This document shows positions 1,075 to 59,824 of a stretch of 64,000 nt of DNA, one piece after another. This DNA comes from Candidatus Staskawiczbacteria bacterium (GTDB taxonomy: Bacteria > Patescibacteriota > Minisyncoccia > Minisyncoccales > Staskawiczbacteraceae), in NCBI GenBank assembly GCA_041659225.1, contig JBAZYR010000006.1, forward strand, positions 1,541 to 65,540. The letters are read 5' to 3'. Position numbers and translations under genes: made by a program. Numbering within the stretch: position 1 is the stretch's first letter; the number at the start of each line of letters is the position of its first letter. Under the pieces are notes generated by a model. The model did no database searches. It worked only from the letters and a program-made list of their open reading frames with translations, and was not told the DNA's origin.

Positions 1075-2673
1075 TCAGCGGATTTTTTTTAGCATGTAAG
1101 TGTCTTTTAATTTGTATCCGAATTTTTTGTAGTATCCTCTTACTCCCACACCGGAAATGACGGTGATTTTTTTAAGCTTCGTTTCGTTCTTAGTAATCTT
1201 CTCGGCTTCTATAATTAATTTTTTCCCTAACCCTTTATGTTGGGGCGACAATTCAGATTCAGTTTCTAACAACGGATGGAGCTGTCCGTAGGTATGTAAC
1301 TCCCGGATGATCGACGATCCTTTAATAACGGAAAGAGTAGCGTCCTCGGATGGTATGCGTAACCTTAGCAGGCTGTATAGCCGTTCGCGGTTTTTGCTTT
1401 CGTAGCTTAAGAATATTTCCCTTCCGCCTGAAGCGCTGTATTCTTCGCGGAAAAGATAGAGTTTTTCTTTTGTTTGGTAATCCCCCTTAATTTCCCGGCA
1501 TCTTATGCAATGGCAACGCCAAGATTGTTTTTTCGAGATTTCCGCTAATATTTGTCTTAGGTTAGAAATCTTAGCTGGACCCTCAACAATGCTTTGCGAA
1601 GGGATGTCCCGTGTCAGCCGTTGTATGCGGCAATAATATGGGATTTGTTTTTTTACTTTTAGCAACAAATCAGTTAGTTGTTTCTCGGTGTATGGTTTGT
1701 ATCCACCTTTCTGCCATAGCCTATACAGCGGCGCCTCTTTTAAGACCGCACAGGGATATATTTTTAATAGATCTGGCTGGAAGCCTTGGTTTTCAAATAG
1801 TTCTCTAAACATTGCCTCGTCTCGCTTTAAATCAGACTTCGGTAGATTCGGCATCATATGGTAGCAAATTTTAAACCCAGCGTCCTTCAACAGTTTCGTT
1901 GCGTTGATCGTGTCTTTTACTGAGTGACCCCGTTGGTTGAATTTTAGAACGTCGTCGTAAATACTTTGGACTCCCATTTCAACTCTAGTCACGCCCAGTT
2001 TCCTTAGATGAAGAATTTCTTTCTCGTTGATATAGTCCGGCCTTGTTTCTGCGGTTATTCCGATGATTCTGTGTTTTGCCACCTCGTTCTTCTTTTGTTC
2101 CCTTGATAGGTTTTGGATTTTATTTCTCGATTTGTTATTACAAGCAGCAAAGCAGCGGGTTACGAACCATTCCTGGTATTTTTTAGGCAAGTAAGACCAT
2201 GTCCCCCCTATAATAATCAGCTCTACCTTGTCAGTCGGGTGTCCTTGAATTTCCAAGGATTCTATTCTAGCTTGGACTTGTCTGTAGGGATCAAACTTGT
2301 TAAGAATAGCTCGCATTACCGCAGGCTCGTTAGAAAGATAGGACTTGGGCATTCCTTTTTCTGTCGGGCAATAAAGACAATTCCCCGGGCAGGGATAAGG
2401 CTTAGTAAGAACAGAGACCACAGCAACGCCGGAAAGAGATCTCATAGCTCTCTTTCTCAGGGCCAGCTCAAGGTTTTTATCGGGTTTTTCCCTTCTTCTG
2501 GCGCAAAAAGCGTGGTATGATTTTAGTAGTTGTATATTGGAAATAACCGGGATTTTGAACTTTTTAGATATCTTTCTTTTGAAGTTATCCAAATCAGCAA
2601 AGGATTTTACTTTACTTTTTACTAAATCAATAATTATTAAGCTCTCTAAGGATTTATCCATAAAATGCGCCAA
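1075..2673 (-). CDS. elp3: Elp3-like radical SAM / GNAT acetyltransferase (tRNA U34 cm5 modification enzyme family)
   Basis: 532 aa. Radical-SAM cluster motif CPGNCLYCP, central TIM-like radical SAM core, C-terminal GNAT block QHKGLGKKLIIEAEKI. The real start may be the second Met at 2661. Confidence 0.85.
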   Translation of the reverse strand: MAHFMDKSLESLIIIDLVKSKVKSFADLDNFKRKISKKFKIPVISNIQLLKSYHAFCARRREKPDKNLELALRKRAMRSLSGVAVVSVLTKPYPCPGNCLYCPTEKGMPKSYLSNEPAVMRAILNKFDPYRQVQARIESLEIQGHPTDKVELIIIGGTWSYLPKKYQEWFVTRCFAACNNKSRNKIQNLSREQKKNEVAKHRIIGITAETRPDYINEKEILHLRKLGVTRVEMGVQSIYDDVLKFNQRGHSVKDTINATKLLKDAGFKICYHMMPNLPKSDLKRDEAMFRELFENQGFQPDLLKIYPCAVLKEAPLYRLWQKGGYKPYTEKQLTDLLLKVKKQIPYYCRIQRLTRDIPSQSIVEGPAKISNLRQILAEISKKQSWRCHCIRCREIKGDYQTKEKLYLFREEYSASGGREIFLSYESKNRERLYSLLRLRIPSEDATLSVIKGSSIIRELHTYGQLHPLLETESELSPQHKGLGKKLIIEAEKITKNETKLKKITVISGVGVRGYYKKFGYKLKDTYMLKKIR

Positions 2674-3372
2674 GAATACGCCAAGTACTTAATAGAGAAG
2701 ACTAGGAGGGATTATAACGTGATTGCTAAGCACTTTTCAAGCACGAGAGAGTTTATGTGGAAGGATTTAATGCCTCTTATTGATTATACAGTTTCTGGCG
2801 ACAAAGTCTTAGATTTAGGCTGTGGCAACGGTCGGTTATTTTCCGTGTTAAAAGAAAAAGGAATTGAATATGTCGGCATGGATAATTCAGAGGGATTAAT
2901 AGAAGAAGCGAAAAGAAGGTTTCCAAAAGCAAGTTTTAAAGTCGGGGGTTTATTAACTTTGCCTTTTCCAGAAGATACTTTTGATAAAGTATACTGTATC
3001 GCCACCTTGCACCATATCCCCTCGAATGAATTGAGGGTGGTAGCTTTAAAAGAAATTAAAAGAGTTCTTAAGCCGAAAGGGATTTTAGTGTTAACTGTCT
3101 GGAATCTATGGCAAAGAAAAACCATTTGGAGAAAAGTTATTAGAAATAATTTATTGAAGGTAATTGGCTTTGCTAAAATGGATTTCAATGATATTTTAGT
3201 TCCGTGGAAGGACAAAGATGGGAAAGTTTTAATTCAGAGATACATTCATTTATTCACGAAAAGAGAGCTCAGAAATGTAGCTAAGAAGGCTGGGTTTACT
3301 GTTCAAGACGTTAAGGTTACTGAACGGCCGGAATTAAAAGATAATAATCTTTTTATCATTTGCCAGAAATAG
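2665..3372 (+). CDS. Trm9/ALKBH8-type class I SAM-dependent methyltransferase
   Basis: 235 aa. YNVIAKHFSSTR...W, VLDLGCGNGR (SAM motif I), ATLHHIPS, DILVPW and QRYIHLFTKREL match the blocks I recall for yeast Trm9. Confidence 0.7.
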   Translation: MRQEYAKYLIEKTRRDYNVIAKHFSSTREFMWKDLMPLIDYTVSGDKVLDLGCGNGRLFSVLKEKGIEYVGMDNSEGLIEEAKRRFPKASFKVGGLLTLPFPEDTFDKVYCIATLHHIPSNELRVVALKEIKRVLKPKGILVLTVWNLWQRKTIWRKVIRNNLLKVIGFAKMDFNDILVPWKDKDGKVLIQRYIHLFTKRELRNVAKKAGFTVQDVKVTERPELKDNNLFIICQK

Positions 3373-3444
3373 GCCCTCGTAGTTCAATGGATAGGACATC
3401 TCCCTCCGAAGGAGAAGATGGCTGTTCGACTCAGCCCGAGGGCA
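3373..3444 (+). tRNA. tRNA-Arg (anticodon CCG)
   Basis: 72-nt cloverleaf folded by hand: acceptor GCCCTCG/CGAGGGC, D stem GTTC/GGAC, anticodon stem TCTCC/GGAGA with loop CT-CCG-AA, T arm GGCTG-TTCGACT-CAGCC, discriminator A. CCA is not encoded. Confidence 0.9.
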
Positions 3445-3539
3445 CATCCGTCATTTATATTTGAATAATTTAGTTGTTTGTGCTAATTTTCAGTTAGTTG
3501 TTTCCGAGTCGTTCCAGTACCTTAACAAGGGGGCAAGTC

Positions 3540-4220
3540 ATGGCCGATACGCCGATGAGATCTCTATTGAGCAGAAATTGGATACTGCATCACCACGCAA
3601 GAGGTAATATATTTATACACCCTTTTAATCCGAGAAATCTTCAAACTACCAGCTACGATGTCAGGCTTGGCGAAAGCTTTTTTCAGGAGCAACTATTCGG
3701 CACATCTTTGAGAAGGCCGTTTAATCCTTTCTGCCCCGCAGACATTGAAAGGTATTGGGGCAAACCGCAGGTGGCAGTCAAAGCTAGCGATTGGGTAGTA
3801 GCAAACGGCCCGTTGGAGAATATCAAACCAGAAGACAGGATTATCATCCTGGGTCCGAGTGAAACTATTCTAGCGCACACAGATGAGTTTATCGGTGGGC
3901 GTAATTGTGTGACAACGGAAATGAGGGCTAGAAGCTCAATGGGTAGAATCGGAATCACTGTCTGTAAGTGCGCTGGTTGGGGTGACCTCGGATTCTGCAA
4001 TCGTTGGACTATGGAGATGACTAATCACCTAAGAGACACTTCAGTTGTTTTAGTGGTCGGTATGCGAGTCGCCCAAATTGCGTTTTATCAAGTTGATCCG
4101 GTAGCATGCTCTTACGCGGATGCAGGTGGCCAGTACCAACCCACGGATGACACAGATAAGATGATGAGCGGATGGTCGCCATATTCGATGTTGCCGAGAT
4201 TCCGTCGTGATAATTATTAA
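3540..4220 (+). CDS. dCTP deaminase / dUTPase-superfamily protein (GC-rich cassette A)
   Basis: SYDVRLG motif, then SSMGRIGITVCKCAGWGDLGFCNRWTMEMTN...GMRVAQIAFY, which matches the dCTP deaminase pattern. I prefer the start at ATG 3540 (SD AAGGGGG 6 nt upstream) over TTG 3498. Visibly GC-rich against its flanks. Weak hairpin about 4235-4265. Confidence 0.65.
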   Translation: MADTPMRSLLSRNWILHHHARGNIFIHPFNPRNLQTTSYDVRLGESFFQEQLFGTSLRRPFNPFCPADIERYWGKPQVAVKASDWVVANGPLENIKPEDRIIILGPSETILAHTDEFIGGRNCVTTEMRARSSMGRIGITVCKCAGWGDLGFCNRWTMEMTNHLRDTSVVLVVGMRVAQIAFYQVDPVACSYADAGGQYQPTDDTDKMMSGWSPYSMLPRFRRDNY

Positions 4221-4269
4221 GACTAGTCATAATCGGTCCTGCTCTCAGCCGGACCTCTTTGTTTATATT

Positions 4270-4311
4270 AGTGGAAATACTGTGGATAATGTGTGATATA
4301 ATTGTGGTATC
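4270..4311. repeat. Four 9-mers phased exactly 11 bp apart, one a perfect DnaA box
   Basis: aGTGGAAAT (4270), TGTGGATAA (4281-4289, the exact reverse complement of TTATCCACA), TGTGATATA (4292), TGTGGTATC (4303). Only the second is a good DnaA box; the others share just the TGTG(G/A) core. Confidence 0.3.
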
Positions 4312-4344
4312 TTTGGTTATTTAGGCGTATCAAGAAAACGGGTA

Positions 4345-4372
4345 TTGACATTGAGCTATTTGGAATTAGAAT
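4345..4372 (+). promoter_or_regulatory. Sigma70-type promoter of the sRNA candidate
   Basis: TTGACA (4345-4350), 16 nt spacer, TAGAAT (4367-4372). Confidence 0.5.
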
Positions 4373-4378
4373 ATAGGG

Positions 4379-4540
4379 CGAGGGGGTGCGAGATTCATTC
4401 TCAAGGACAAAGTGGTTCTTAATGCAGTAGGTTGAAGTTATTTAACAATAATTCACGTGTCCGAATTATGCTTGAGCATAAACCGATCGCGTTGAGAGTT
4501 ACACCCCCTCACTAAAAAATCCCGTAAAACGGGATTTTTT
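4379..4540 (+). ncRNA. Orphan structured sRNA candidate (unclassified)
   Basis: No ORF beyond 2 codons. A perfect 9-bp closing helix (GAGGGGGTG 4380-4388 with CACCCCCTC 4502-4510) encloses TCTCAA/TTGAGA, GGACA/TGTCC and TATGCT/AGCATA helices. An intrinsic terminator ATCCCG-TAAAA-CGGGAT plus T6 (4514-4540) follows directly. The downstream gene has its own extended -10. Confidence 0.45.
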
Positions 4541-4632
4541 AGTTCACCGACTTGTGCTCCAAAATGTGTGCTAATATGTTAAAATAAGGTATATTAAGAA
4601 AGGTCGAACAATTATTTAAAATATATAAAAAC

Positions 4633-4896
4633 ATGGTAAAGAAGGAAGAGGGAAAAGTAATTGGTAAAATCACCCATTACTTTTCCAACATCGAGGTTTG
4701 TGTCATTGAGCTTACAGGTCCTTTGAAGGAAGGAGATGAGATCAGGGTTGTCGGCGGAGAAGAGACTGATTTTACTCAAACAGTTGGTTCAATGCAGATT
4801 GAACACGAGAAAGTAAAATCAGCGAAAAAGGGAGACGCAATCGGCATGAAGATAAAAGAAAAGGTAAGGGAAGGATATAAGGTGTATAAGGTGTAG
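4633..4896 (+). CDS. Small beta-barrel protein resembling EF-Tu domain 2
   Basis: 87 aa. GKVIGKITHYFSNIEVCVIEL...GDEIRVVG...GDAIGMKI resembles the translation-factor domain-2 barrel. Function unknown. Confidence 0.5.
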   Translation: MVKKEEGKVIGKITHYFSNIEVCVIELTGPLKEGDEIRVVGGEETDFTQTVGSMQIEHEKVKSAKKGDAIGMKIKEKVREGYKVYKV

Positions 4897-4959
4897 GTCT
4901 TTTTTAAGCTTTAGTTTTAGGGATTTTGTTCAATCCTTAATTTTTAATTATCTATATAA

Positions 4960-5949
4960 ATGAAAATAACTCGTACTCCAATAGAAATAAGAGAAAAAAT
5001 AGAGAATAAGGTCATTGATTGGCTGGCTTTTGGCGCCGGAGGAAAGCTTACAGTTACAAAGCCGACAGATAGTTTCTCTCCCGCCGATATAGTTGTGAAA
5101 GCGAGAGGAGAGTATGATGAAGAAGTTTCTCTTTATTTTAAAATCCAAGAATGCACTAAATCAGGGGAGAAAAATACATATAAAACAGAAGTTAAGCTTG
5201 ATGATTTCAAAACGATAGAGAATTATTTCTTGTTGTTTGTATATTTTGATATAGTTTTCCAGGATATCAACGAATATGCTTGGCTTATTCCCTTGAAGAC
5301 TTTTTCTGAAATTTCAGAGCCGGCCACTTCCGGCAAGAAAAAGATATTGTTATTTGAGTCGCCGATAAACGTTGAAGCAGAAAATCAATATACAAAATAT
5401 CTAGTTCGAAAGGATGAGCTTGCTAATGTTGTCGAGAGAATAATAAAGGCGGGCGGTAAATTCGAGGTGTCTGAAGGGGGATTATCCGATTTAATAAAGA
5501 TTAAAATAGATGATTTGAAAGAATTTATCTCCGAGGCCCGTCGAAATACTTATGCAGGAGAGGGGGTCTTTGTTGATAATCCCCGTTTGCTCGGATCTAA
5601 AGAATTTGAATTCCAAAAAGGAGACTGGTTTTATCAAGATATCTATTTCAGTGGAGAAAAGAATCTTATCGGGCAGGAAATTGTTTACCATAATAATAAG
5701 CCAATTTGGAGCATGGGTTATTTCGGGGAGCAAGTATCGAACAAAACCGCTGAATTTTTAAGAATGGCTTTATTAAAACTATCAGATAAGTGCCGGCTTG
5801 GGGAGAAATGTGAAGTTGAAAAAAAGGAGTTTCGCTATGAGGATTCAGGCACTGGGACTATAGAAAAATTCTGGGGCGAAGAAAAGATATCTATGCTGGG
5901 CAAGAACATCTATAAGTTAAACTATCAAGGCGGTTTGATTTCAAAGTAA
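4960..5949 (+). CDS. Hypothetical two-domain protein, possibly with an N-terminal PD-(D/E)xK-like nuclease fold
   Basis: 329 aa ORF whose stop abuts the EndoQ start (TAA-ATG). The D...E-x-K-like pattern (ADIVVKARGE...IQECTK) is only suggestive. Confidence 0.5.
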   Translation: MKITRTPIEIREKIENKVIDWLAFGAGGKLTVTKPTDSFSPADIVVKARGEYDEEVSLYFKIQECTKSGEKNTYKTEVKLDDFKTIENYFLLFVYFDIVFQDINEYAWLIPLKTFSEISEPATSGKKKILLFESPINVEAENQYTKYLVRKDELANVVERIIKAGGKFEVSEGGLSDLIKIKIDDLKEFISEARRNTYAGEGVFVDNPRLLGSKEFEFQKGDWFYQDIYFSGEKNLIGQEIVYHNNKPIWSMGYFGEQVSNKTAEFLRMALLKLSDKCRLGEKCEVEKKEFRYEDSGTGTIEKFWGEEKISMLGKNIYKLNYQGGLISK

Positions 5950-7197
5950 ATGATTTTTATAGCGGACTTCCACATCCACTCCAAATATTCCAGGGCGACG
6001 TCGCCCCAGATGGATTTAATAAATCTGGATAAGTGGGCTAGAATAAAAGGCATAAAGGTCTTAGGCACGGGCGACTTTACCCATCCAGAATGGTTTAAAT
6101 CTTTAAAAAAGGAGCTAGAGCCAGCTGAGCCGGGCTTGTTTAAATTGAAGACAAGCGATTCCCCTACTCGTTTTATTCTTACCTCGGAGATAAGCTGTAT
6201 TTATAAAAAGAATGATCGAGTAAGAAAGGTGCATATTATAGTTTTTGCTCCGTCGCTTGAGGTTGTTGGGGAAATTAATGCTCAGCTTGGGCGCATCGGG
6301 AATATCAAGTCTGACGGAAGGCCGATATTAGGGTTAGATGCAAAAGAGTTAGCAAAGATTATATTGAACATCTCAAAAGACTGTTTGATAGTGCCGGCCC
6401 ATCTTTGGACGCCGTGGTTTAGTATTTTTGGCTCAAAATCAGGATTCGATTCTATCGAGGAATGTTTTGACGAATATTCAAAATATATATATGCGGTTGA
6501 AACAGGATTAAGTTCAGACCCCGCCATGAATTGGAGGCTATCAGGATTAGATAAGGTCGCTTTAATCTCGAACAGCGATAGCCACTCCCCCAGGAAAATC
6601 GGCAGGGAAGCTAACGTTTTTAGCGCCGATTTGAGCTATGAAGGAATCGCCGAAGCGATAAAATCTAAGGATAATACGAGATTTCTTTATACCATCGAGT
6701 TTTTTCCAGAAGAGGGGAAATATCATTTCGATGGCCATAGAAGCTGCGATATTAGTTTGGCCCCGGAAAAATCAAAGAAATATAATAACATTTGCCCTCG
6801 TTGTGGGAAACCTTTAACCATCGGTGTGCTTAATAGGGTGGAGGAGTTGGCAGACCGGCCCGAAGGGTTTAAACCAAAAAACCTCATCCCCTTCCGCAGT
6901 TTGATTCCACTTGAAGAAATAATTGCAGAGGCAAAAAATGTCGGGCCTAATTCTAAAAAAGTAGCGCTAGAATACGATAAAGTGATAAAAAATATAGGAA
7001 ACGAGTTTAGGATATTATTGGAATCTTCGAGGGAGGAGCTGAATGAAGCGACGAGTTCAGAAATCGCCGAAGGGATAATTAGAGTAAGGGAAGGAAATGT
7101 CAGTATCGAGCCGGGTTTTGACGGCATCTATGGCAAGGTGAAGATTTTCAGCGAAGCAGAGAAAAAAGATATATCAACCCAGAGCACTTTATTTTGA
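5950..7197 (+). CDS. Endonuclease Q (EndoQ)-like PHP-domain endonuclease
   Basis: 415 aa. N-terminal DFHIHSKYSRA PHP motif, SNSDSHSP, zinc finger CPRCGKPLTIGVLNRVEELADR and a C-terminal GFDGIYGKVKIF-type tail parallel Pyrococcus EndoQ as I recall it. Confidence 0.8.
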   Translation: MIFIADFHIHSKYSRATSPQMDLINLDKWARIKGIKVLGTGDFTHPEWFKSLKKELEPAEPGLFKLKTSDSPTRFILTSEISCIYKKNDRVRKVHIIVFAPSLEVVGEINAQLGRIGNIKSDGRPILGLDAKELAKIILNISKDCLIVPAHLWTPWFSIFGSKSGFDSIEECFDEYSKYIYAVETGLSSDPAMNWRLSGLDKVALISNSDSHSPRKIGREANVFSADLSYEGIAEAIKSKDNTRFLYTIEFFPEEGKYHFDGHRSCDISLAPEKSKKYNNICPRCGKPLTIGVLNRVEELADRPEGFKPKNLIPFRSLIPLEEIIAEAKNVGPNSKKVALEYDKVIKNIGNEFRILLESSREELNEATSSEIAEGIIRVREGNVSIEPGFDGIYGKVKIFSEAEKKDISTQSTLF

Positions 7198-14512: not shown

Positions 14513-14543
14513 TTTTTCCGCCGGATGGCGGATATTATATTAG

Positions 14544-14887
14544 TGGAGGTGAAGGGATTGAACCCTTGTCTAAAAGTTTTTATAAAATAATTCTACAAAC
14601 TTAGACTGTTTTAATGTCAGATATCAAATGAGAAGCAGTCAAAAATTTAATATCTTGGAGTCCCATATTTGTTCTTCAGGCTTCTGGGACAAAAGTCTGT
14701 ATATCCTAATAATATGACACCCTTATCTGCCTATTAGAAATTAGCAGGAAGGATGAGCATTAAGCGTATGCTAATGCTGGTTTGTTAAATAAGTTGACAC
14801 TTATTTGTTTTCTAGAAGTTTAATCAGATTCTAGAATACTGAGTTTGCTTATTTTATAAAAGGACTCTTATCGAAACAGGCACCCCC
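14544..14887 (-). ncRNA. ssrA: tmRNA (SsrA)
   Basis: The 5' end GGGGGTGCCTGTTTCGATAAGAG pairs with the 3' CACCTCC-A, including a G3:U pair. A tRNA-like T arm (AAGGGTTCAATCCCTT) lies at the 3' end. It starts 3 nt after the smpB stop. Candidate tag frame ...AAC AAA CCA GCA TTA GCA TAC GCT TAA (NKPALAYA-stop) at about 14760-14786. Confidence 0.85.
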
Positions 14888-39054: not shown

Positions 39055-39100
39055 GGGAAATGTAAAAACCGAGCTCACATTAGGCCCGGTTTTTTCTTAG

Positions 39101-39184
39101 TGCCGAGGGAGGGACTTGAACCCTCAAGAGCTTGCGCTCGCAGGTTTTTGAAACCTGTATGTTTGCCAATTTCATCACCTCGGC
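39101..39184 (-). tRNA. tRNA-Leu (anticodon CAA)
   Basis: 84 nt. Acceptor GCCGAGG/CCTCGGC, 3-bp D stem with an 11-nt loop, anticodon stem CAGGT/ACCTG with loop TT-CAA-AA, long variable arm (GAGC-GCAA-GCTC), T arm GAGGG-TTCAAGT-CCCTC, discriminator A. Confidence 0.9.
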
Positions 39185-44434: not shown

Positions 44435-46411
44435 TCATTTCCTTAATTTTTCAACCGCGTCTGAAATCATCTGGCAATAAAGGTTCAGCCCGACTTTATT
44501 TATGCTTCCGCTTTGCTCTTTGCCTAATATATTTCCAGCACCGCGCATTTCTAAATCCTTCATAGCAATTCTATAACCCGAACCTAATTCCTGCGCTTCC
44601 TCCAGCGCAGCTAATCTCATGGACCCTTTTTCCTGCAGATTCTTTTTGTGCAGGAAATACGCATAAGATTGGGTGCCGGAACGGCCGACTCGTCCGCGTA
44701 TTTGGTATGCCTGCGACAGGCCAAGGCGTTCAGAGTTAGCTACAATTATGGTATTTACGTTTGGAAAATCTAAGCCGTTCTCAATAATAGTTGTTGCTAA
44801 AAGAATATCAATCTTCGGTTTTTTGTTGTCTTTAATAGAAAAATCGTCCATTATTCTGACCAATTCCCTTTCTTTCATCTTTCCATGAACAATGGCAATT
44901 TTAGCTGTCGGGACTAATTCTTGAATCGCCTTTTTAACCGCCTCGATAGTTTGCACCCGATTGTGTAAATAATAAATTTGGCCTCCCCTTTTCATCTCAT
45001 CCTCAATTGCTTTTTTAATAACTTTCATTGATTGGGGTGTAACGATTGTTTTTATAGGCAGCCTCTGCTCTGGCGGCGTTTGGATAAAACTCACATCTTT
45101 TAAAGAAGAAAGCGACAAGTAAAGCGTGCGCGGAATGGGAGTTGCAGACAAAGATAATATATCAATCTTTGTTCGCATTTGTTTTAACTTTTCTTTCTGC
45201 CACACCCCAAACCTTTGTTCGTCGTCGATTATCAAAAGTCCTGTTTCATCTTTTTGGAATAGCAAAGGGACAATATCTTTCGATAATATCCTATGCGTCC
45301 CTATCACAATATCGATTTTATTTTTTTCTAATCTTTTAATTATCTCTTTTTGTTCTTTTTTAGTTTGGAGCCTGGTCAGAAGGGAAACCTCAATAGGGAG
45401 ATTATCTAGTCTCTTTTTAAAATTGTGAAAATGCTGGCTGGCCAGAATTGTAGTGGGGGCGATCAGCACTACCTGGTACCCCGATTTCACAACTTTCACC
45501 GCAGCTCTTATTGCAATTTCTGTTTTTCCAAAACCAACATCGCCACAGATTAATCTGTCCATTGGTTTTGTTTTTTCAAGGTCTTTGTTTATTTCCTCAA
45601 TGGCTTGCAGTTGATCTGGAGTTTCCTCGTATTTGAAGCTATCCGCTATCTCGGAATCAAACTCATCAGAGGGAAGATAAGGTGCTCTTTGCGCTTCTTC
45701 CCGTCCGGCATATATTTCCAGAAGTTCTTTGGCGAACTTTTCTGCCTCCTCCTTAATTTTCTTTTTAGTTTTTTGCCATAAGGAAGACCCGAGTCTGGCT
45801 ATATTCGGTTCTACAAAGCCAGTGTATCTGGAAAGTTTTCTTTCTAAACCAACAGGCACATAAAGCTTGTCCCCGCCGCTATATTCTAAAAGATAATATT
45901 TGCCTTCGTTATGGGAAACAATGTCATTGAATTTGCCGATGCCGTGGTCGAGGTGGACTATGTAGCTGCCGGGTTTTAAACCTTTTAAGTCAGAAAAAAG
46001 CTTTTGAGATTTTAGCTTCTTTTTCAATACTTCTCGTGCTTTTTCCTCGTCTTCTATATATATATCGAGATTCTCAATATTATCAATTTTGTTTCCCAGG
46101 AAGTCGAAGCGCACTGCGTTTTTCATGTTAATAGAAAAGATATTTATTACCCCGCCGTGCTGCGAGAACTCTCCGGGGTCAGATACCTTAAGAACTTTCT
46201 CGTATCCCATTTCGTCTATCTTCCGTAGAAAAAGAGAAAAGTTGTATGTTTGGTCTTTTTCTAGAAATAAAATATTATCCTGGAAAAAGGTTTGAGACTT
46301 CTGAGCGCTAAGAACTTCTTTGAGATTTTCTTCGAACCAAATAACCCCCTTTTCTAGAAAGTAGGGGATGAGGCTTACTATTAAAACCTGATTTAGTTTA
46401 CTAATGCCCAT
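44435..46411 (-). CDS. mfd: Transcription-repair coupling factor (Mfd), short form
   Basis: CarD/RID motif YIVHLDHGIGKF, helicase motifs GDVGFGKTE, DEQRFGV, QIRGRVGRS and a TRG-like LEMRGAGNILGKEQSG. It lacks the UvrB-homology N-terminus. Confidence 0.85.
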   Translation of the reverse strand: MGISKLNQVLIVSLIPYFLEKGVIWFEENLKEVLSAQKSQTFFQDNILFLEKDQTYNFSLFLRKIDEMGYEKVLKVSDPGEFSQHGGVINIFSINMKNAVRFDFLGNKIDNIENLDIYIEDEEKAREVLKKKLKSQKLFSDLKGLKPGSYIVHLDHGIGKFNDIVSHNEGKYYLLEYSGGDKLYVPVGLERKLSRYTGFVEPNIARLGSSLWQKTKKKIKEEAEKFAKELLEIYAGREEAQRAPYLPSDEFDSEIADSFKYEETPDQLQAIEEINKDLEKTKPMDRLICGDVGFGKTEIAIRAAVKVVKSGYQVVLIAPTTILASQHFHNFKKRLDNLPIEVSLLTRLQTKKEQKEIIKRLEKNKIDIVIGTHRILSKDIVPLLFQKDETGLLIIDDEQRFGVWQKEKLKQMRTKIDILSLSATPIPRTLYLSLSSLKDVSFIQTPPEQRLPIKTIVTPQSMKVIKKAIEDEMKRGGQIYYLHNRVQTIEAVKKAIQELVPTAKIAIVHGKMKERELVRIMDDFSIKDNKKPKIDILLATTIIENGLDFPNVNTIIVANSERLGLSQAYQIRGRVGRSGTQSYAYFLHKKNLQEKGSMRLAALEEAQELGSGYRIAMKDLEMRGAGNILGKEQSGSINKVGLNLYCQMISDAVEKLRK

Positions 46412-46423
46412 TTTTCATAATGC

Positions 46424-46452
46424 TTGACAGATATATTATTATATGTTATTAT
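46424..46452 (+). promoter_or_regulatory. Promoter of cassette D
   Basis: TTGACA (46424-29), 17 nt spacer, TATTAT (46447-52). Confidence 0.5.
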
Positions 46453-46512
46453 TTTTTTATCGTAAGTAGTTGTTCCTTTTACCAAGACCTTGCGCAACAT
46501 AAGGAGAAAATT

Positions 46513-46914
46513 ATGACTGCAAGGCAAACGATTTCGACGGAAAAGATGGAACGGGCAAAGAGGATGAGGGACCTTGGGTTTATTCATGTCACTGGTTTAC
46601 CCACATGGAATCCGAATGGCACCATGGGTTACTTCATCCAACCTCGGCATGGTGAAATGAACTGCACTGGCCACAATAATGGGGTGACCGTTGTCATCAT
46701 GCCTGACGGTGAAGTGTGGATTGGATTCATATCCGATCCGATCGTGATCTGCAGGATGGTCACATGGCTCAACATTGGTCAAACCGACGCCTTTGTGCCG
46801 TGCTCCAACGGGGAGCAGGTGTCCCAGAATCTGATTCTGGCAAGGAATGCCAACCCTTACACCGACTGCCATGGGCAATATTCACCCGTTCCGAGACCAA
46901 AGGGACCAAAATGA
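46513..46914 (+). CDS. GC-rich orphan protein, 133 aa (cassette D)
   Basis: Perfect SD AAGGAG (46501-06) 6 nt before the ATG. MTARQTISTEKMERAKRMRDLGFIHVTGLPTWNPNG... No family recognised. The track ORF start at 46420 lies in the AT-rich leader and is rejected. Confidence 0.6.
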   Translation: MTARQTISTEKMERAKRMRDLGFIHVTGLPTWNPNGTMGYFIQPRHGEMNCTGHNNGVTVVIMPDGEVWIGFISDPIVICRMVTWLNIGQTDAFVPCSNGEQVSQNLILARNANPYTDCHGQYSPVPRPKGPK

Positions 46915-46942
46915 TCGAATAATTCGGTCGACAACAAATCAT

Positions 46943-46977
46943 GCCGCCCTGCGCAACAGCGTACGGGCGGCTTTCTT
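46943..46977. terminator. Convergent terminator shared by cassette D and pth
   Basis: GCCGCCC-(15 nt)-GGGCGGC followed by TTTCTT. It overlaps the pth stop codon. Confidence 0.6.
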
Positions 46978-47545
46978 ATTTATTAAATTCGTTCATTGCT
47001 TTCTCTGCGCCCTCGTTGATTAGCAGAGTTAAAGCCCTTGCCACTATCTCTACCGCTTTATCTTTCAATTCGTCTTCTTCTTTTTTAAAATTGCCGATTA
47101 CAAACTTTTCTGGATTTTTTGGTTTCATACTACCCGGCAAGATGCCCATTCTTATTCTAATGAAGTTTTCTTTGCCTAGATTCGTAATAATTGACTCTAC
47201 TCCTTTATGTCCGGCAGATCCTCTATTCTTGGATATTTTTATTGTTCCCAGCGCCAAATCAATATCGTCATGAATCACGATTATGTCTTCCGGCTGTTGC
47301 TCGGTATTAGAAATGATTTTCTTTGTTGCCTTTCCAGATTCATTCATAAAGGTCTGGGGTTTTGCCAAGAGTATCTTTTCTCCGGCCAAAATTCCTTCAG
47401 ATATAAAGGAACTATATTTTTTTGATAACGCAAAATCGGGGAAATTATTCTTCTCCGCAAACGCATCTACGGCCATAAAACCGAAGTTATGTCGTGTGTT
47501 TTTGAACTTTTCTCCCGGATTTCCGAGGCCGATAATTATCTTCAT
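46976..47545 (-). CDS. pth: Peptidyl-tRNA hydrolase
   Basis: MKIIIGLGNPGEKFKNTRHNFGF is a canonical Pth N-terminus. Confidence 0.95.
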   Translation of the reverse strand: MKIIIGLGNPGEKFKNTRHNFGFMAVDAFAEKNNFPDFALSKKYSSFISEGILAGEKILLAKPQTFMNESGKATKKIISNTEQQPEDIIVIHDDIDLALGTIKISKNRGSAGHKGVESIITNLGKENFIRIRMGILPGSMKPKNPEKFVIGNFKKEEDELKDKAVEIVARALTLLINEGAEKAMNEFNK

Positions 47546-47575
47546 ATATTATAGAATATATCATAGAAAATCTGT

Positions 47576-47604
47576 TTGACAAAGGGTCGTCTAAAGTATA
47601 CTAT
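47576..47604 (+). promoter_or_regulatory. Promoter of cassette E
   Basis: TTGACA (47576-81), 17 nt spacer, TACTAT (47599-604). Confidence 0.5.
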
Positions 47605-47745
47605 AAACTAATCGTTTTTGAGCACATTTAAATTATAACGAAAGGAGAGAAATGAACTGAAAAAAGCAGATTTTTGAGCCGCGGAGGTACACTAGGGAAT
47701 GGAAGTGTACGTTCGGATGTTGGATCAAATCTGAAGGGATTCTCA

Positions 47746-48015
47746 ATGTCTAGGTCTGGCGAGCCATCACGTCTGCAGATCATGTCCGTAGTCGGGGATC
47801 TTTCCGAGGTCGACATTAACGACCCGAAGCAGATGAAGAAGTTCGGGAGGCGTCTTGACGTCCCCGACCGAAAGATCCGGTGCTGCCTGACAAGCCTGAT
47901 GAGAAAGGAGCGCAGGAATGGCAAAATGGTTTGTGCGAAAGGTCCGCCCCCGCCTTATCGAAACAGGCGTGGCAACACTCGCGTACAGGCTTTTGCTGTT
48001 TCTGCAAGAGGGTAA
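47746..48015 (+). CDS. GC-rich orphan protein E1, 89 aa (cassette E)
   Basis: SD GAAGGG 7 nt before the ATG. Third-position GC is high (42 of 57 codons by hand) up to about 47915, then drops. The stretch VDINDPKQMKKFGRRLDVPDRKI vaguely recalls DUF3606-type small proteins. The 3' third is uncertain because of an overlapping frame. Confidence 0.45.
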   Translation: MSRSGEPSRLQIMSVVGDLSEVDINDPKQMKKFGRRLDVPDRKIRCCLTSLMRKERRNGKMVCAKGPPPPYRNRRGNTRVQAFAVSARG

Positions 48016-48020
48016 ATACC

Positions 48021-48617
48021 ATGGAAGGTACAATGACCCCAATTACTGCCCTTGCGGGCCTGCTTTCAAGGGTCGTTCAAGAAGAATGCCCCTCTGTCAC
48101 TTTGCTGATAAGTGCCGTTGAGCGGCAAAAGATTAAGCAAGCATTTGAGGTGGCTCATCCATTAGCCGAGCAACTTAAACATAGAGCGAAGGATGTGTGC
48201 TGCTTTTCACTGTACCGAACAAGTCCGAATTCGTGGAAGCTTCTGACAACCCATGGAAATGTTGTTGTCAGCGAGAAAGACGGCGTATTCAAGACTACCG
48301 CTTGTTCTGATCAACGAGAGCCGAGAAAAGGTCATACAATCCGTAACAGACTGTTGGGACAGTGGAGTACCGCCTACAAGAAGATGGGCTTCCGCTACCC
48401 GACAGTGAAGGGTAACGTTCTTTTCTGCGGGGATTTCTCGCTTCTTCATCCGGCCGCATTGATAGGGCTGCAGATGCTGTTCACAATTAACGGTGCTGCC
48501 AAAGTGGCTTTTGCTACTCCGGTAATTGATGGTGAAAACCATCGAGTATTAGAGCAGCAGGGCTGCAAAATCATCATGCTTCGGCCCGTAGGCGAAGCAT
48601 TCTCGCTTTCAGCGTGA
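48021..48617 (+). CDS. GC-rich orphan protein E2, 198 aa (cassette E)
   Basis: SD AAGAGGG contains the E1 stop (GGGTAA) and lies 8 nt before the ATG, suggesting translational coupling. MEGTMTPITALAGLLSRVVQEEC... No family recognised. The track start at 47880 is rejected. Confidence 0.6.
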   Translation: MEGTMTPITALAGLLSRVVQEECPSVTLLISAVERQKIKQAFEVAHPLAEQLKHRAKDVCCFSLYRTSPNSWKLLTTHGNVVVSEKDGVFKTTACSDQREPRKGHTIRNRLLGQWSTAYKKMGFRYPTVKGNVLFCGDFSLLHPAALIGLQMLFTINGAAKVAFATPVIDGENHRVLEQQGCKIIMLRPVGEAFSLSA

Positions 48618-48643
48618 TTTCTCTCTAATAGCACAAAGCACAG

Positions 48644-48666
48644 GGCTGTCGCACGACAGCCTTTTT
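48644..48666 (+). terminator. Terminator of cassette E
   Basis: GGCTGTC-GCAC-GACAGCC followed by T5. Confidence 0.7.
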
Positions 48667-48707
48667 ACTTGTTAAAATACAAAAAGAGTGATATTATTAC
48701 TATTGTT

Positions 48708-49262
48708 ATGAATCAAACTCTCACATATATCTGGGAATTTGCAAAGATTTTTTTGATCGCTTTAATAATAGTAGTTCCTATCCGCTATTTTTTATTCCAG
48801 CCATTCATCGTTCAAGGAGATTCAATGGTGCCGAATTTTCACTCTGGCGACTACTTGATTATTGATGAAATATCATATCGGTTTGGCTCGCCCCAAAGAG
48901 GAGATATTATTGTTTTTAAATATCCCAAAAACCCAATTCACAGATTCATTAAGAGAATTATCGGCTTGCCAGGAGAAACTGTCAGCGTCAAAGACGGGAT
49001 AGTGACTATTTACGATAAAGACGGAAACCAGCAAATTTTGGACGAAACAGTATATCTGCCTGATGCAATATCAACTACTTATGGAGATATGCGGATTATT
49101 CTAAGCGATACGGAATACTTTGTGCTGGGAGATAACCGAGCGTATTCTTCAGACTCCAGAGCCTGGGGACCACTTCCGAGAGATAATATTATAGGGAAAG
49201 TATTTATCAGGGTTTTCCCATTCGCAGCTTTAAGCAAAATACCAACGCCAGCTTATCAATAA
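48708..49262 (+). CDS. lepB: Signal peptidase I
   Basis: VQGDSMVPNF (catalytic Ser), GDIIVFKYP, RFIKRIIGLPGE (catalytic Lys region), GDNRAYSSDSR. I prefer ATG 48708 over TTG 48669, which sits in the preceding terminator T run. Confidence 0.9.
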   Translation: MNQTLTYIWEFAKIFLIALIIVVPIRYFLFQPFIVQGDSMVPNFHSGDYLIIDEISYRFGSPQRGDIIVFKYPKNPIHRFIKRIIGLPGETVSVKDGIVTIYDKDGNQQILDETVYLPDAISTTYGDMRIILSDTEYFVLGDNRAYSSDSRAWGPLPRDNIIGKVFIRVFPFAALSKIPTPAYQ

Positions 49263-51372: not shown

Positions 51373-51774
51373 ATGATTACGATTCACAATCTGACAAATT
51401 TTGTCGTAAGTGAGGTTTTTTTAAAGAGAGTTGCAAAAGTTGTTTTAAAAGGAGAAAATGTAATGAAGAAAGAGCTTTCTGTCGTGCTAGTAAAACCGGA
51501 GGAAATAAAAAAGGTGAATAATATTTACAGGAAGAAAAATAAACCAACGGATGTGCTCTCTTTCGAAGGAGCAGAAAATAATTTAGGCGAAGTATTAATT
51601 TGCCCTTCGGTAGTGAAAGGAAATTCCGAGAAAAACAAATTAAATTTTCAAGAAGAAATATCATTTGTTTTAATCCACGGTATTTTACATCTTCTAGGAT
51701 ATGATCACGAAGGAAGCAAGGCGCAGGAAAAAAAAATGGAACAAAAACAAGAATATTATTTAACTCGAATCTAA
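51373..51774 (+). CDS. ybeY: rRNA maturation RNase YbeY
   Basis: HGILHLLGYDHE zinc motif. Confidence 0.85.
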   Translation: MITIHNLTNFVVSEVFLKRVAKVVLKGENVMKKELSVVLVKPEEIKKVNNIYRKKNKPTDVLSFEGAENNLGEVLICPSVVKGNSEKNKLNFQEEISFVLIHGILHLLGYDHEGSKAQEKKMEQKQEYYLTRI

Positions 51775-58382: not shown

Positions 58383-59300
58383 ATGATGACGATGGCAACA
58401 TCGATCACATCTGGACAGATTGACCAGGCGACGGATTTGGCACGGGCCAGGATTAGGAAGATGACGGGCGTCTCTTCCGAAGGGTTCCAGCTTTTTCTCG
58501 CAAGAGGCGGAGAGTTCCAGGACGACGTGGAAGCGTCAATCAGGAGGCTGATGCGACGCGATCAATTCGCCGACGAGCAGGTTCTCGCGACCTACGGCTA
58601 CCCCGAGGAATACAAGGGTCCCAAACTCATCGAGGATCAGATCAAGGCATTGGCCTCAATCTGCGACAGCAAAGTCGATCCGAGCTGCGCACTCGCCTTC
58701 GCCAGGAACCTCCCTGACTTAAAGTCCTTCGTGCCGGAAGACGCCCTCGGGTACACTGGCTGGTTCGCCACCCTGTGGGATGAAGCGCTGGTCGCTCTCT
58801 TCCCCGAGGAAACAGACCGTGCTCGTCGTTACTGCCTCGGCGTCAATTTGATGGTCGAGAAGATCGCCTTGACCCGTCCGTTCACGAACTGGAGAAATAA
58901 TCAGATCGACACAGCCCACCTCAGAATCCACCCCCGCACAATGCAGGCGATGGATCAGATCGCCCTGACACAGAGAGGCGGCATCCTTCTTCTCGCCTGC
59001 CAACTCGGGATTCGCCATGGTGGCCGCTCCGTTCGTCGGGCTCGCGAGTTATTCCTTGGCAACGAGTACGGCACAGGCAGCCTCATGGGGACTTCCATCG
59101 TCTACAACCATCCGGAACGCCTCATGCGTTACAAGGAACTGGACATGGATCTTCCCGGAGACGAGTTTTCCGGTGATGGTGACGTCCAGTTCGTCCACGC
59201 TCCGCTCCTCTCCTTCCACGACGGGGCCAGGTTCGACACGAACGCTGTCTCGTACGCTGATGGCGACTTTGGGTCGTCGTCGTTCTTCGTTCCGCAGTAG
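58383..59300 (+). CDS. DGR target (variable) protein, 305 aa, GC-rich, VR at the extreme C-terminus
   Basis: The last 44 codons form the VR. There is no N-terminal signal peptide or TM (MMTMATSITSGQIDQATDLARARIRK...). The C-terminus ...FDTNAVSYADGDFGSSSFFVPQ lacks the GFR/W-rich pattern I associate with C-type-lectin-fold VRs. Confidence 0.85.
   Translation: MMTMATSITSGQIDQATDLARARIRKMTGVSSEGFQLFLARGGEFQDDVEASIRRLMRRDQFADEQVLATYGYPEEYKGPKLIEDQIKALASICDSKVDPSCALAFARNLPDLKSFVPEDALGYTGWFATLWDEALVALFPEETDRARRYCLGVNLMVEKIALTRPFTNWRNNQIDTAHLRIHPRTMQAMDQIALTQRGGILLLACQLGIRHGGRSVRRARELFLGNEYGTGSLMGTSIVYNHPERLMRYKELDMDLPGDEFSGDGDVQFVHAPLLSFHDGARFDTNAVSYADGDFGSSSFFVPQ
59167..59298 (+). repeat. DGR variable repeat (VR)
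   Basis: Aligns without gaps to 59693-59824 (offset 526). There are 18 differences; 17 fall where the TR has A (VR positions 59173, 184, 194, 205, 211, 212, 217, 223, 224, 230, 245, 253, 259, 263, 265, 269, 295) and one is TR-G to VR-T (59185). Confidence 0.9.
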
Positions 59301-59369
59301 TGATTCTCGAAACTTGAACGATTGGTTCTTTTGAATCGTTTTCCCTTGAACTTTTCGTTCGCGACATAT

Positions 59370-59408
59370 GGCGCTGCCTTGCTCCTTGCAGGCAGCGCCT
59401 CTTTTTTT
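59370..59408 (+). terminator. Terminator of the DGR target gene
   Basis: GGCGCTGCC-(12 nt)-GGCAGCGCC followed by TCTTTTTTT. A smaller hairpin, AACGATT-(10 nt)-AATCGTT, lies at 59317-59340 just after the VR. Confidence 0.75.
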
Positions 59409-59692
59409 ACTTTTAGTATTATTTATGTATAATTAAATTGAGATTAGGTTAATGAATAACAGTTCACGGATTGTTATCACCGAACTCTCTTTTCAATGAA
59501 CAACCAGAGTCTTTGCGTTCACGGATGCAAAGAGCGTGTTGCTTGAGGAGATACTGCTTGCCTTATCTATGGCGGGTTTTTTATTTCTAGAATAAAGATG
59601 CCGTCGAATAAAATTCAGGGGGTTGGAGGATATATGTTTCACTAAGGAACGGCAAACCTCTGCTCCTGGTGCAAGGGATGGATAAAGGCATG

Positions 59693-59824
59693 TTTCCGAT
59701 GATGGTGACAGCCAGTTCGACCACGCTCCGATCCTCAACTTCAACGACAAGGCCAAGTTCGACACGAACGATGTCTCGAACGCTAATGACAACTATGGGT
59801 CGTCGTCGTTCTTCGTTCCGAAGT
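59693..59824 (+). repeat. DGR template repeat (TR)
   Basis: Non-coding copy of the VR (in-frame TAA at 59683-85 just upstream, no start codon). It contains 32 A by hand count, 17 of them substituted in the VR. Variable codons in the TR are AAC x4, AAG x3, GAT x2, GAC x2, AAT, AGC, ATC and TAT. The 3' 24 nt GGGTCGTCGTCGTTCTTCGTTCCG are A-free and identical in both copies. Confidence 0.9.

Follow-up and report, generated by a model that had tools for sequence, protein, structure and literature searches.

A probable two-gene operon with its own promoter and a leader upstream open reading frame, kept at one site between pth and lepB-hisS in a lineage of Patescibacteria

We asked what is encoded in a compact GC-rich unit, cassette E (47576-48666), of a 64,000-nucleotide (nt) stretch of DNA from a Candidatus Staskawiczbacteria bacterium (Patescibacteria; assembly GCA_041659225.1, contig JBAZYR010000006.1, positions 1,541 to 65,540), and which of the frames that can be read from it are genes. 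The whole stretch is called the window throughout. A preliminary description of this DNA had listed a promoter, a leader with a two-codon mini-open reading frame (mini-ORF), two apparently coupled genes (E1 and E2) and a third, overlapping frame. Comparison with related loci leads us to conclude that cassette E is probably a vertically inherited, lineage-specific two-gene operon of Patescibacteria with its own promoter, leader upstream ORF (uORF) and terminator. The promoter, the Shine-Dalgarno (SD) sequence and ATG of the mini-ORF and the two genes are real, as they are conserved in relatives.

Cassette E is flanked by pth (46976-47545, minus strand) on one side and by lepB-hisS (from 48669) on the other. 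In NCBI, E2 is named as a hypothetical protein of Candidatus Staskawiczbacteria bacterium. A word-indexed search with E2 returned two matches only, and a profile search of 1.84 billion cluster representatives returned 26, a few of them spurious FG-GAP giants; the genuine E2 family amounts to about 20 clusters (50% identity) among these representatives. The giant-protein matches P0019, P0021, P0025 and P0030 were rejected as spurious, and two of them were inspected: P0019 is an FG-GAP repeat protein, whose GDF-type repeats imitate the VLLCGDFS motif of E2, and P0030 is without a phosphoribosyltransferase (PRT)-related domain. DNA was recovered for the relatives L001, L004/L005/L009, L006, L007/L008, L010, L012, L016, L017, L018, L019, L020/L021 and L022 (L004 is GCA_018896455.1, and L021 is a near-duplicate of L020); genome scans added one locus and metagenome scans four. 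In the nearest relative (L010, L014, L015) the contig stops 165 nt upstream of E2 and the leader lies beyond its end.

Eleven related loci have a common layout of promoter, short upstream ORF, E1 (∼88 amino acids, aa), E2 (∼200 aa) and terminator. An E1-like gene of 86-113 aa lies immediately 5' of the E2-like gene in all loci that reach far enough upstream, and the pair adjoins pth and/or lepB-hisS in every locus with readable flanks (L004, L006, L012, L016, L018, L019 and L020), with E2 identity falling to ∼30% among the syntenic loci (e.g. L020). The preliminary description had set its more elaborate reading against a simple two-gene layout devoid of the mini-ORF; in homologs the layout is indeed the simple one of two genes, yet an upstream ORF is retained. 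A repeat search across the window found no other copy of cassette E or of its leader. The cassette genes have a GC content of 0.49-0.55 versus 0.40 (∼40%) for the window, and the GC content at third codon positions (GC3) of E1 is 0.40-0.62 across lineages (at least 0.48 in all except L016), while that of the neighbouring genes is 0.26-0.46. Since synteny is conserved down to ∼30% E2 identity, we regard cassette E as native and vertically inherited and not as a foreign insert; together with the conserved high GC3 of E1, this synteny rules out horizontal acquisition as the source of the high GC, which is, on the sequences compared, a trait of the family.

The sigma-70-type promoter (47576-47604, plus strand) was confirmed as TTGACA (47576-47581), 17 nt and TACTAT, with 10 of 12 consensus positions. 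It is conserved in relatives, the TTGACAA and the -10 TATA..AT columns being invariant across seven aligned leaders; promoter-like sites are frequent in the region (12 found versus 5.0 expected). Its -35 element overlaps, back to back, the divergent -35 element of pth (TTGTCA). From here transcription would run through a leader of ∼140 nt, E1 and E2 to an intrinsic terminator (48642-48663, plus strand; 9-bp stem and T-run) that ends the operon before lepB, and analogous terminators lie 3' of E2 in L001, L004, L006 and L020. As to the opposite strand, the pth promoter (47543-47582, minus strand) consists of TTGTCA, 16 nt and TATATT with a TG element, and the promoter core shared by pth and cassette E, TTGACAAAGG, is kept in relatives. 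The pth mRNA may be leaderless or nearly so, because the -10 element ends only ∼10 nt before the pth ATG (47545).

What, then, is the mini-ORF in the leader? In the window it occupies, together with its ribosome-binding site, positions 47641-47660 of the plus strand (AAAGGAG at 47641-47647, 4 nt, then ATG AAC TGA at 47652-47660), exactly as first described. It encodes Met-Asn-stop, which makes it a two-codon minigene and not a strict start-stop. Its SD and ATG recur in relatives, GAAAGGA and an (A/G)TG start occupying the same alignment columns in all seven leaders compared. The ORF that follows in the relatives is longer, 7-8 codons, and always has proline as its last residue. It reads MKKARAP in L004 (stop TAG), L006 (TAA) and L007/L008 (TGA), MKQERAP in L001 (TAG), MNRIRAP in L012 (TAG), ERPRGP after a GTG start in L019 (TAG) and MKKTAKPP in the distant L020 (TGA), so that the end is R-A-P-stop, R-G-P-stop or K-P-P-stop. 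The ORF keeps its frame and length across loci that between them end in each of the three stop codons, and synonymous changes occur (AAA/AAG, CCT/CCC). This combination, with proline always last, points to selection on the translated leader peptide, and the variation of the stop codons suggests that the peptide rather than the RNA is conserved. The window mini-ORF begins like that of L012 (ATG AAC) and has TGA at codon 3; 12 alignment columns are missing from it, those with the GCGCCTTAG segment of the relatives' leader ORF. For these two reasons we take it to be a truncated derivative of the longer uORF. The best lead at this locus is the R-A/G-P-stop leader peptide, in the relatives rather than in the window.

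The relatives' leader peptide resembles known arrest peptides. The literature documents RAPP and RGPP as arrest motifs (PMC10951233, PMC12992588), and arrest peptides of this type (ApdA, ApdP; SecM with RAGP) lie upstream of regulated genes (PMC7897499, PMC10951233, PMC12992588). In the relatives the last three residues are Arg-Ala-Pro in five lineages and Arg-Gly-Pro in L019, with the same alternation of alanine and glycine, and the ORFs stand upstream of an operon that directly precedes lepB, a protein-export gene. The differences are as plain. None of these ORFs encodes the complete R-A/G-P-P core, as a stop replaces the second proline in the R-A-P-stop and R-G-P-stop forms, L020 ends in K-P-P-stop and the window copy, Met-Asn-stop, has no trace of the motif; moreover, at 7 residues the relatives' peptide is not long enough to fill the exit tunnel, signal and transmembrane segments are absent from it, and a terminator separates E2 from lepB. 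Because the fourth position is a stop codon and not proline, any arrest would take place at termination and not at peptide-bond formation. TnaC (...R-P-stop; PMC8450073) is a documented case of arrest at termination with proline at the C-terminus, and the relatives' leader ORF is like TnaC and the mini-hairpin termination blocker (PMC11890864) in ending with Pro-stop upstream of regulated genes. TnaC has 24 residues, however, requires free tryptophan and acts via Rho, whereas the relatives' leader ORF has 7-8 codons and is followed by a G-rich spacer that, read manually, is not rut-like.

If the uORF acts on the operon, it would do so as a translational gate on the leader. In the relatives this gate would probably be slow termination on an ...R-A/G-P peptidyl-tRNA, a termination-stage cousin of RAPP/RGPP arrest with the same R-A/G-P geometry, in which release factor would replace Pro-tRNA in the A site. 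We consider it rather improbable that the relatives' 7-codon ORF (M-K-K-A-R-A-P-stop, with its R-G-P-stop variant) is in fact a minimal termination-stage arrest peptide gating the E1-E2 pair, the window then being a loss-of-peptide variant. In the window itself the uORF would either have decayed to a remnant or serve simply as a minigene that loads ribosomes.

The two genes below the leader follow each other closely. E1 (89 aa; 47746-48015, plus strand) is preceded by the SD GAAGGGA (47733-47739), 6 nt before its ATG, which aligns with GGAAAGGA of the relatives. The E2 SD, GAGGG (48008-48012), lies 8 nt before the ATG of E2 (198 aa; 48021-48617, plus strand) and directly abuts the E1 stop TAA (48013-48015), which ends 5 nt before that ATG. 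The close juxtaposition noted earlier holds, with the correction that the stop is adjacent to the SD and not inside it. An E1 stop that falls within the E2 SD or borders on it, at 5-15 nt from the ATG, is common to the window (GAGGG TAA), L010 (TAGGAGG), L001, L004, L007 and L012 (TAGGAG in each) and L018 (TAGGGAAGGAG). This arrangement, with 5-11 nt between stop and ATG in the window and its closer relatives, suggests that ribosomes finishing E1 go on to translate E2; termination-reinitiation coupling is plausible on these junctions, and it would give a fixed E1:E2 ratio.

The E2 protein had been called unrecognisable. This stands for its sequence, as neither Pfam (including PF00156) nor NCBIfam gave a match at E ≤ 1, PADLOC had no family for it, and its profile found two irrelevant matches only among PDB sequences (E = 0.34 and 1.1). 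It does not stand for the predicted structures, in which E2 has a confident PRT-like fold and E1 an HTH-like (helix-turn-helix-like) helical domain. The AlphaFold model of E2, built with a 20-sequence alignment, has a predicted local distance difference test score (pLDDT) of 89.7 and a predicted template modelling (TM) score of 0.86, and it contains the parallel beta-sheet flanked by helices that forms the PRT core. When the model was compared to the PDB with Foldseek, the top 50 matches were all type I PRTs or PyrR (probability 1.00, TM 0.38-0.50), and it superposes on APRT, HGPRT, OPRT, UPRT and PyrR. It differs from type I PRTs in having no sequence similarity to them in the Pfam and PDB profile searches and in a degenerate loop, VLFCGDFSLLHP, in place of the canonical motif for phosphoribosyl pyrophosphate (PRPP). 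The family conserves instead D58-x-C60-C61, T76-T77-H78-G79 and R108 (DxCC, TTHG and R108), for which we know of no PRT counterpart; the conserved cysteine and histidine residues may form a metal or Cys/His site. The MEG start of E2, within CCATGGAAGG, is common to 12 of the 20 family members.

E1 is not called as a gene in two public annotations of the window genome (L002, L003), and in L019 and L022 it is likewise uncalled in the annotation but readable in the DNA. Its product has no match in Pfam, NCBIfam or PADLOC. The E1 model (pLDDT 67.7) has helices at residues 9-16, 27-37 and 41-57, i.e. a three-helix HTH-like domain (residues ∼9-57), followed by a basic, proline-containing, disordered tail in which pLDDT is <50 from residue 71 and indels separate the relatives. 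We therefore describe E1, on its model, as a predicted small helical protein with an HTH-like domain. Its GC3 is 37/50 in the first 50 codons and 19/39 in the last 39; the fall in GC3 that had been pointed out is present (the count being 19/39, not 18/39), and it coincides with this tail, the variable, predicted-disordered last third of the protein, which accounts for it. In most divergent pairs of loci the differences in E1 are in excess at codon position 3 (L019-L004: 28, 25 and 49 at positions 1, 2 and 3). Close to its end the E1 gene of L006 (∼840-890) has lost 1 nt (GGGAAC versus GGGCAAC); the reading frame changes there, so that E1 runs 14 nt into E2 with an altered C-terminus (…LGTQLSFRRNSHGRC); this frame-shifted end indicates that the E1 tail tolerates change.

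Could the two proteins act together? Bacillus PurR has an HTH domain joined to a PRT domain, and here an HTH-like E1 lies directly upstream of a PRT-fold E2, although the two parts are separate proteins. By this analogy E1 could be the HTH subunit that binds nucleic acid, and E2, with its PRT fold, the subunit that binds a ligand or catalyses a Cys/His-dependent reaction, the two acting jointly like a split PurR. This is our preferred guess at their function, but a tentative and, on the whole, unlikely one.

A number of results weigh against the picture drawn so far, in one or another of its parts. The PRPP motif consists of a hydrophobic strand of four residues, two acidic residues and then the phosphate loop xxTGxT (T/S-G-x-T); E2 does not have it, as the window reads NVLFCGDFSLLHP and the family consensus, VLLCGDFSxxxP, has one acidic residue and no TG.T loop. 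Foldseek with the E1 model returned homeodomains, none of them significant (best E = 0.31), and about 15 of the 23 matches of the E1 profile in the PDB were to sigma-70 region 4, at sub-threshold values (E = 0.26-9). The E1-E2 gap is 20-34 nt in L016, L017, L019 and L020, so the stop in the SD is not universal. In L001, L004, L006 and L007 the synonymous divergence (dS) of E1 is 0.13-0.38 versus 0.87-1.43 for E2 and 1.35-2.0 for lepB/hisS. This is 3-4 times below E2, and the differences fall about equally on all three codon positions. Exchange of the 5' part by recombination could explain it, as could an additional constraint at the nucleotide level; between more distant loci E1 has a normal synonymous divergence. 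In the leader, the uORF lies 70-110 nt upstream of E1, RNAalifold found no consensus structure in the leader alignment and thus no conserved RNA switch that would link uORF and E1, and a modelled ribosome footprint at the uORF stop left the accessibility of the E1 ribosome-binding site unchanged in all eight leaders. A peptide-dependent mechanism cannot operate in the window at all, as its mini-ORF is without the peptide. Finally, stalling at RAP-stop or RGP-stop is reported in neither PMC12992588 nor PMC10951233; the former does not mention stop codons, and the latter does so in construct descriptions only.

The alternative that survives best concerns the window copy of the uORF: the two-codon mini-ORF may itself be functional in this lineage, as a strong-SD minigene that captures ribosomes on the leader and so throttles or stabilises the mRNA, or causes drop-off of Met-Asn-tRNA, beside a divergent gene for peptidyl-tRNA hydrolase. 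The SD (AAAGGAG, 4 nt spacing) and the ATG were retained despite loss of the peptide part. Two-codon minigenes are known as regulators and as Pth-dependent toxic elements (PMC8708949, PMC2490762, PMC10192219), start-stops exist in bacterial 5' leaders (bioRxiv 10.1101/520783), and pth lies immediately upstream on the opposite strand with the -35 region in common. The mini-ORF of the window resembles the lambda bar-type and axe-txe minigenes (PMC8708949) and the start-stops (bioRxiv 10.1101/520783) in its makeup, as it lies in a 5' leader and consists of an ATG behind a strong SD, a single sense codon and a stop. Unlike a start-stop it has one elongation step, and unlike the known two-codon minigenes it occurs at chance frequency and derives from a longer ancestral uORF: ORFs of at most two sense codons with a strong SD number 2 in the window versus 1.8 ± 1.3 in dinucleotide shuffles. 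The two-codon form was seen in the window only, the contig of the nearest relative, L010, ending before the leader, and the adjacency of pth is not specific to it, because relatives with the 7-codon form have pth there too. We regard a function of the minigene as possible and not as the likelier case. The only other strong-SD mini-ORF in the window, at 51458-51463 (AAAAGGAGAAA followed by ATG TAA), is a true start-stop; it sits inside the ORF 51373-51774 and is probably coincidental.

Could the pair instead be a type II toxin-antitoxin or defence-type module, acquired horizontally, which would account for its GC-rich composition? The genes are two, small and tightly spaced, with their own promoter and terminator, the first is HTH-like, the GC content departs from that of the window as given above, regulation by a minigene is known in axe-txe (PMC8708949), and in L004 a diversity-generating retroelement lies next door. 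But the pair keeps its position between pth and lepB-hisS in all informative loci, down to ∼30% E2 identity, is single-copy and has no mobility genes; PADLOC, Pfam and NCBIfam gave no match, and the high E1 GC3 is a trait conserved in every lineage rather than a mark of recent transfer. We therefore think a toxin-antitoxin or defence module very unlikely.

Less probable again is that the leader, possibly with the E1 region, is mainly a structured regulatory RNA (riboswitch, attenuator or small RNA) and its ORFs secondary. The nucleotide identity of leader and E1 (0.80-0.93, versus ∼0.5-0.8 for E2, in L001, L004, L006 and L007) and the low E1 dS in the same loci would fit such an RNA, as would a hairpin between the 3' end of the uORF (GCGCCUUAG) and a downstream G-run, which manual inspection of the folds showed to recur in L001, L004, L006, L008 and L012. 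However, this hairpin has conserved bases and no compensatory changes, and the covariation term of RNAalifold on E1 is only -0.14. Rfam matched nothing in the cassette, neither at gathering thresholds in a scan of the whole window nor at E ≤ 10 in 46300-48800, the leader alignment has no RNAalifold consensus, and the window leader folds no better than its shuffles (z = 0.03). At larger distances, moreover, E1 has the substitution pattern of a coding sequence. The 6-bp leader hairpin of the preliminary description (47687-47710, plus strand) is present, with GTACAC (47687-47692) pairing to GTGTAC (47705-47710) across a 12-nt loop; it is not alignably conserved. Taken as the main function of the leader, a structured RNA is thus extremely unlikely.

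A second short leader ORF, MEVYVRMLDQI-stop (47699-47734, plus strand), has its ATG within the loop of this hairpin and ends at a TGA (47732-47734) that overlaps the E1 SD. The ATG at 47699 is positionally common to several relatives, where the ORF has 1-19 codons (ATG TAA in L004, MYM-stop in L001 and MVI-stop in L008; the 19-codon ORF of L006 and the ATG of L012, which is 2 columns off and in the E1 frame, were read by hand).

The last alternative is the one with which the preliminary description had closed, namely that E1 is shorter or altered, that a third gene (47918-48121, 67 aa) overlaps, or that a frameshift or an assembly indel near 47900-47920 is involved. The features behind it are there: AAAGGAG stands 7 nt before the ATG at 47918, the GC3 of the first 33 codons of the third frame (19/33) is slightly above that of the E1 tail, and each of the three forward frames has long open stretches here. 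The E1 frame, however, is kept through and past 47918 with the motif RK[QE]RRNG…PPP[YF] (the segment across 47918 is RKERRNGKMVCAKGPPPPY in the window, RKQRRNGNGQEAKDAPPPF in L001 and RKQRRNGGTDSCKGKPPRY in L010, the nearest relative), and AAAGGAG, singled out earlier as the best SD, and the ATG are by-products of it, as they fall in codons of the conserved RK[E/Q]RRNG motif (AGA AAG GAG ... AAT GGC), the SD-like part being made up of its purine-rich codons. In codons 58-88 of L001, L004 and L007 the E1 frame has 18 synonymous and 24 nonsynonymous changes, compared to 6/37 and 13/30 in the other frames. Stop codons interrupt the third frame in every relative (L001, L004, L007, L010, L012, L016 and L017); an ATG at the same spot in L006 and L007 opens an ORF of 14 codons only, and the 'third' frame of L006 is E1's own frame, displaced by the 1-nt indel. 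Comparative frame conservation thus gives the third frame no support. An assembly indel is excluded, because two independent assemblies (Logan SRR18595301 and European Nucleotide Archive ERZ27249449) agree with the window over 6.6 kb, with the sole exception of position 48616, where the E2 stop is TGA versus TAA. With regard to a frameshift, manual reading of the window sequence found no slippery heptamer X XXY YYZ in the E1 frame. Upstream of the E2 ATG, the E2 frame stays open for 54 codons in the window, but for only 6-31 in L010, L016, L012, L006 and L004, and its early closure in these five relatives rules out an E1-E2 frameshift fusion. Pfam, NCBIfam and PADLOC had no match for the third-frame product or for the 245-aa extended E2 ORF. 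The overlapping-gene and frameshift readings are thus refuted by the sequence comparison, and we give them next to no credence.

Several observations concern the surroundings of cassette E. Between mfd and pth lies another self-contained GC-rich unit, cassette D (46424-46960; GC 0.51, GC3 0.59), with a near-consensus extended promoter (46424-46452; TTGACA, 17 nt, TATTAT, with TG) and a gene (46513-46914) for a 133-aa protein without a family match. In L019 the corresponding place is taken by a gene for a 161-aa protein (GC3 0.70), with which the cassette D protein has 39% identity. At the position of cassette D, between mfd and pth, L004 carries the diversity-generating retroelement (2446-5121), with a bAvd accessory protein, an RVT_1 reverse transcriptase and a 258-aa candidate target; a link between this target and the cassette D protein was ruled out, as the two have no similarity. 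In L004 (∼6960-7040) and L006, the E2 terminator is followed by a sequence that resembles the 3' end of a minus-strand tRNA gene (…GGATTCGAACC…); at this position in the window it is absent. Elsewhere in the window, a 132-nt direct repeat (59167-59298 and 59693-59824; 86% identity, 526 nt apart) lies within the most GC-rich part (58501-59500, GC 0.50-0.58). The window also holds a tmRNA (14541-14887, minus strand; Rfam, 96.5 bits), tRNA-Arg(CCG) at 3373-3445 and tRNA-Leu(CAA) at 39100-39184.

For the annotation of this genome, this means that E1 is a real but unannotated gene, and that cassette E holds no hidden third gene and no frameshift. E2 represents a family with a predicted PRT fold in which the PRPP motif has been lost and conserved Cys-Cys and His residues have been acquired, and with E1 it forms a rare protein pair, fixed between pth and lepB-hisS in one clade of Patescibacteria. 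If the relatives' leader ORF does prove to be an arrest peptide, it would be the shortest member of the RAPP/RGPP class and the first in Patescibacteria, and it would extend RAPP-type arrest to termination and to peptides of 7 residues.

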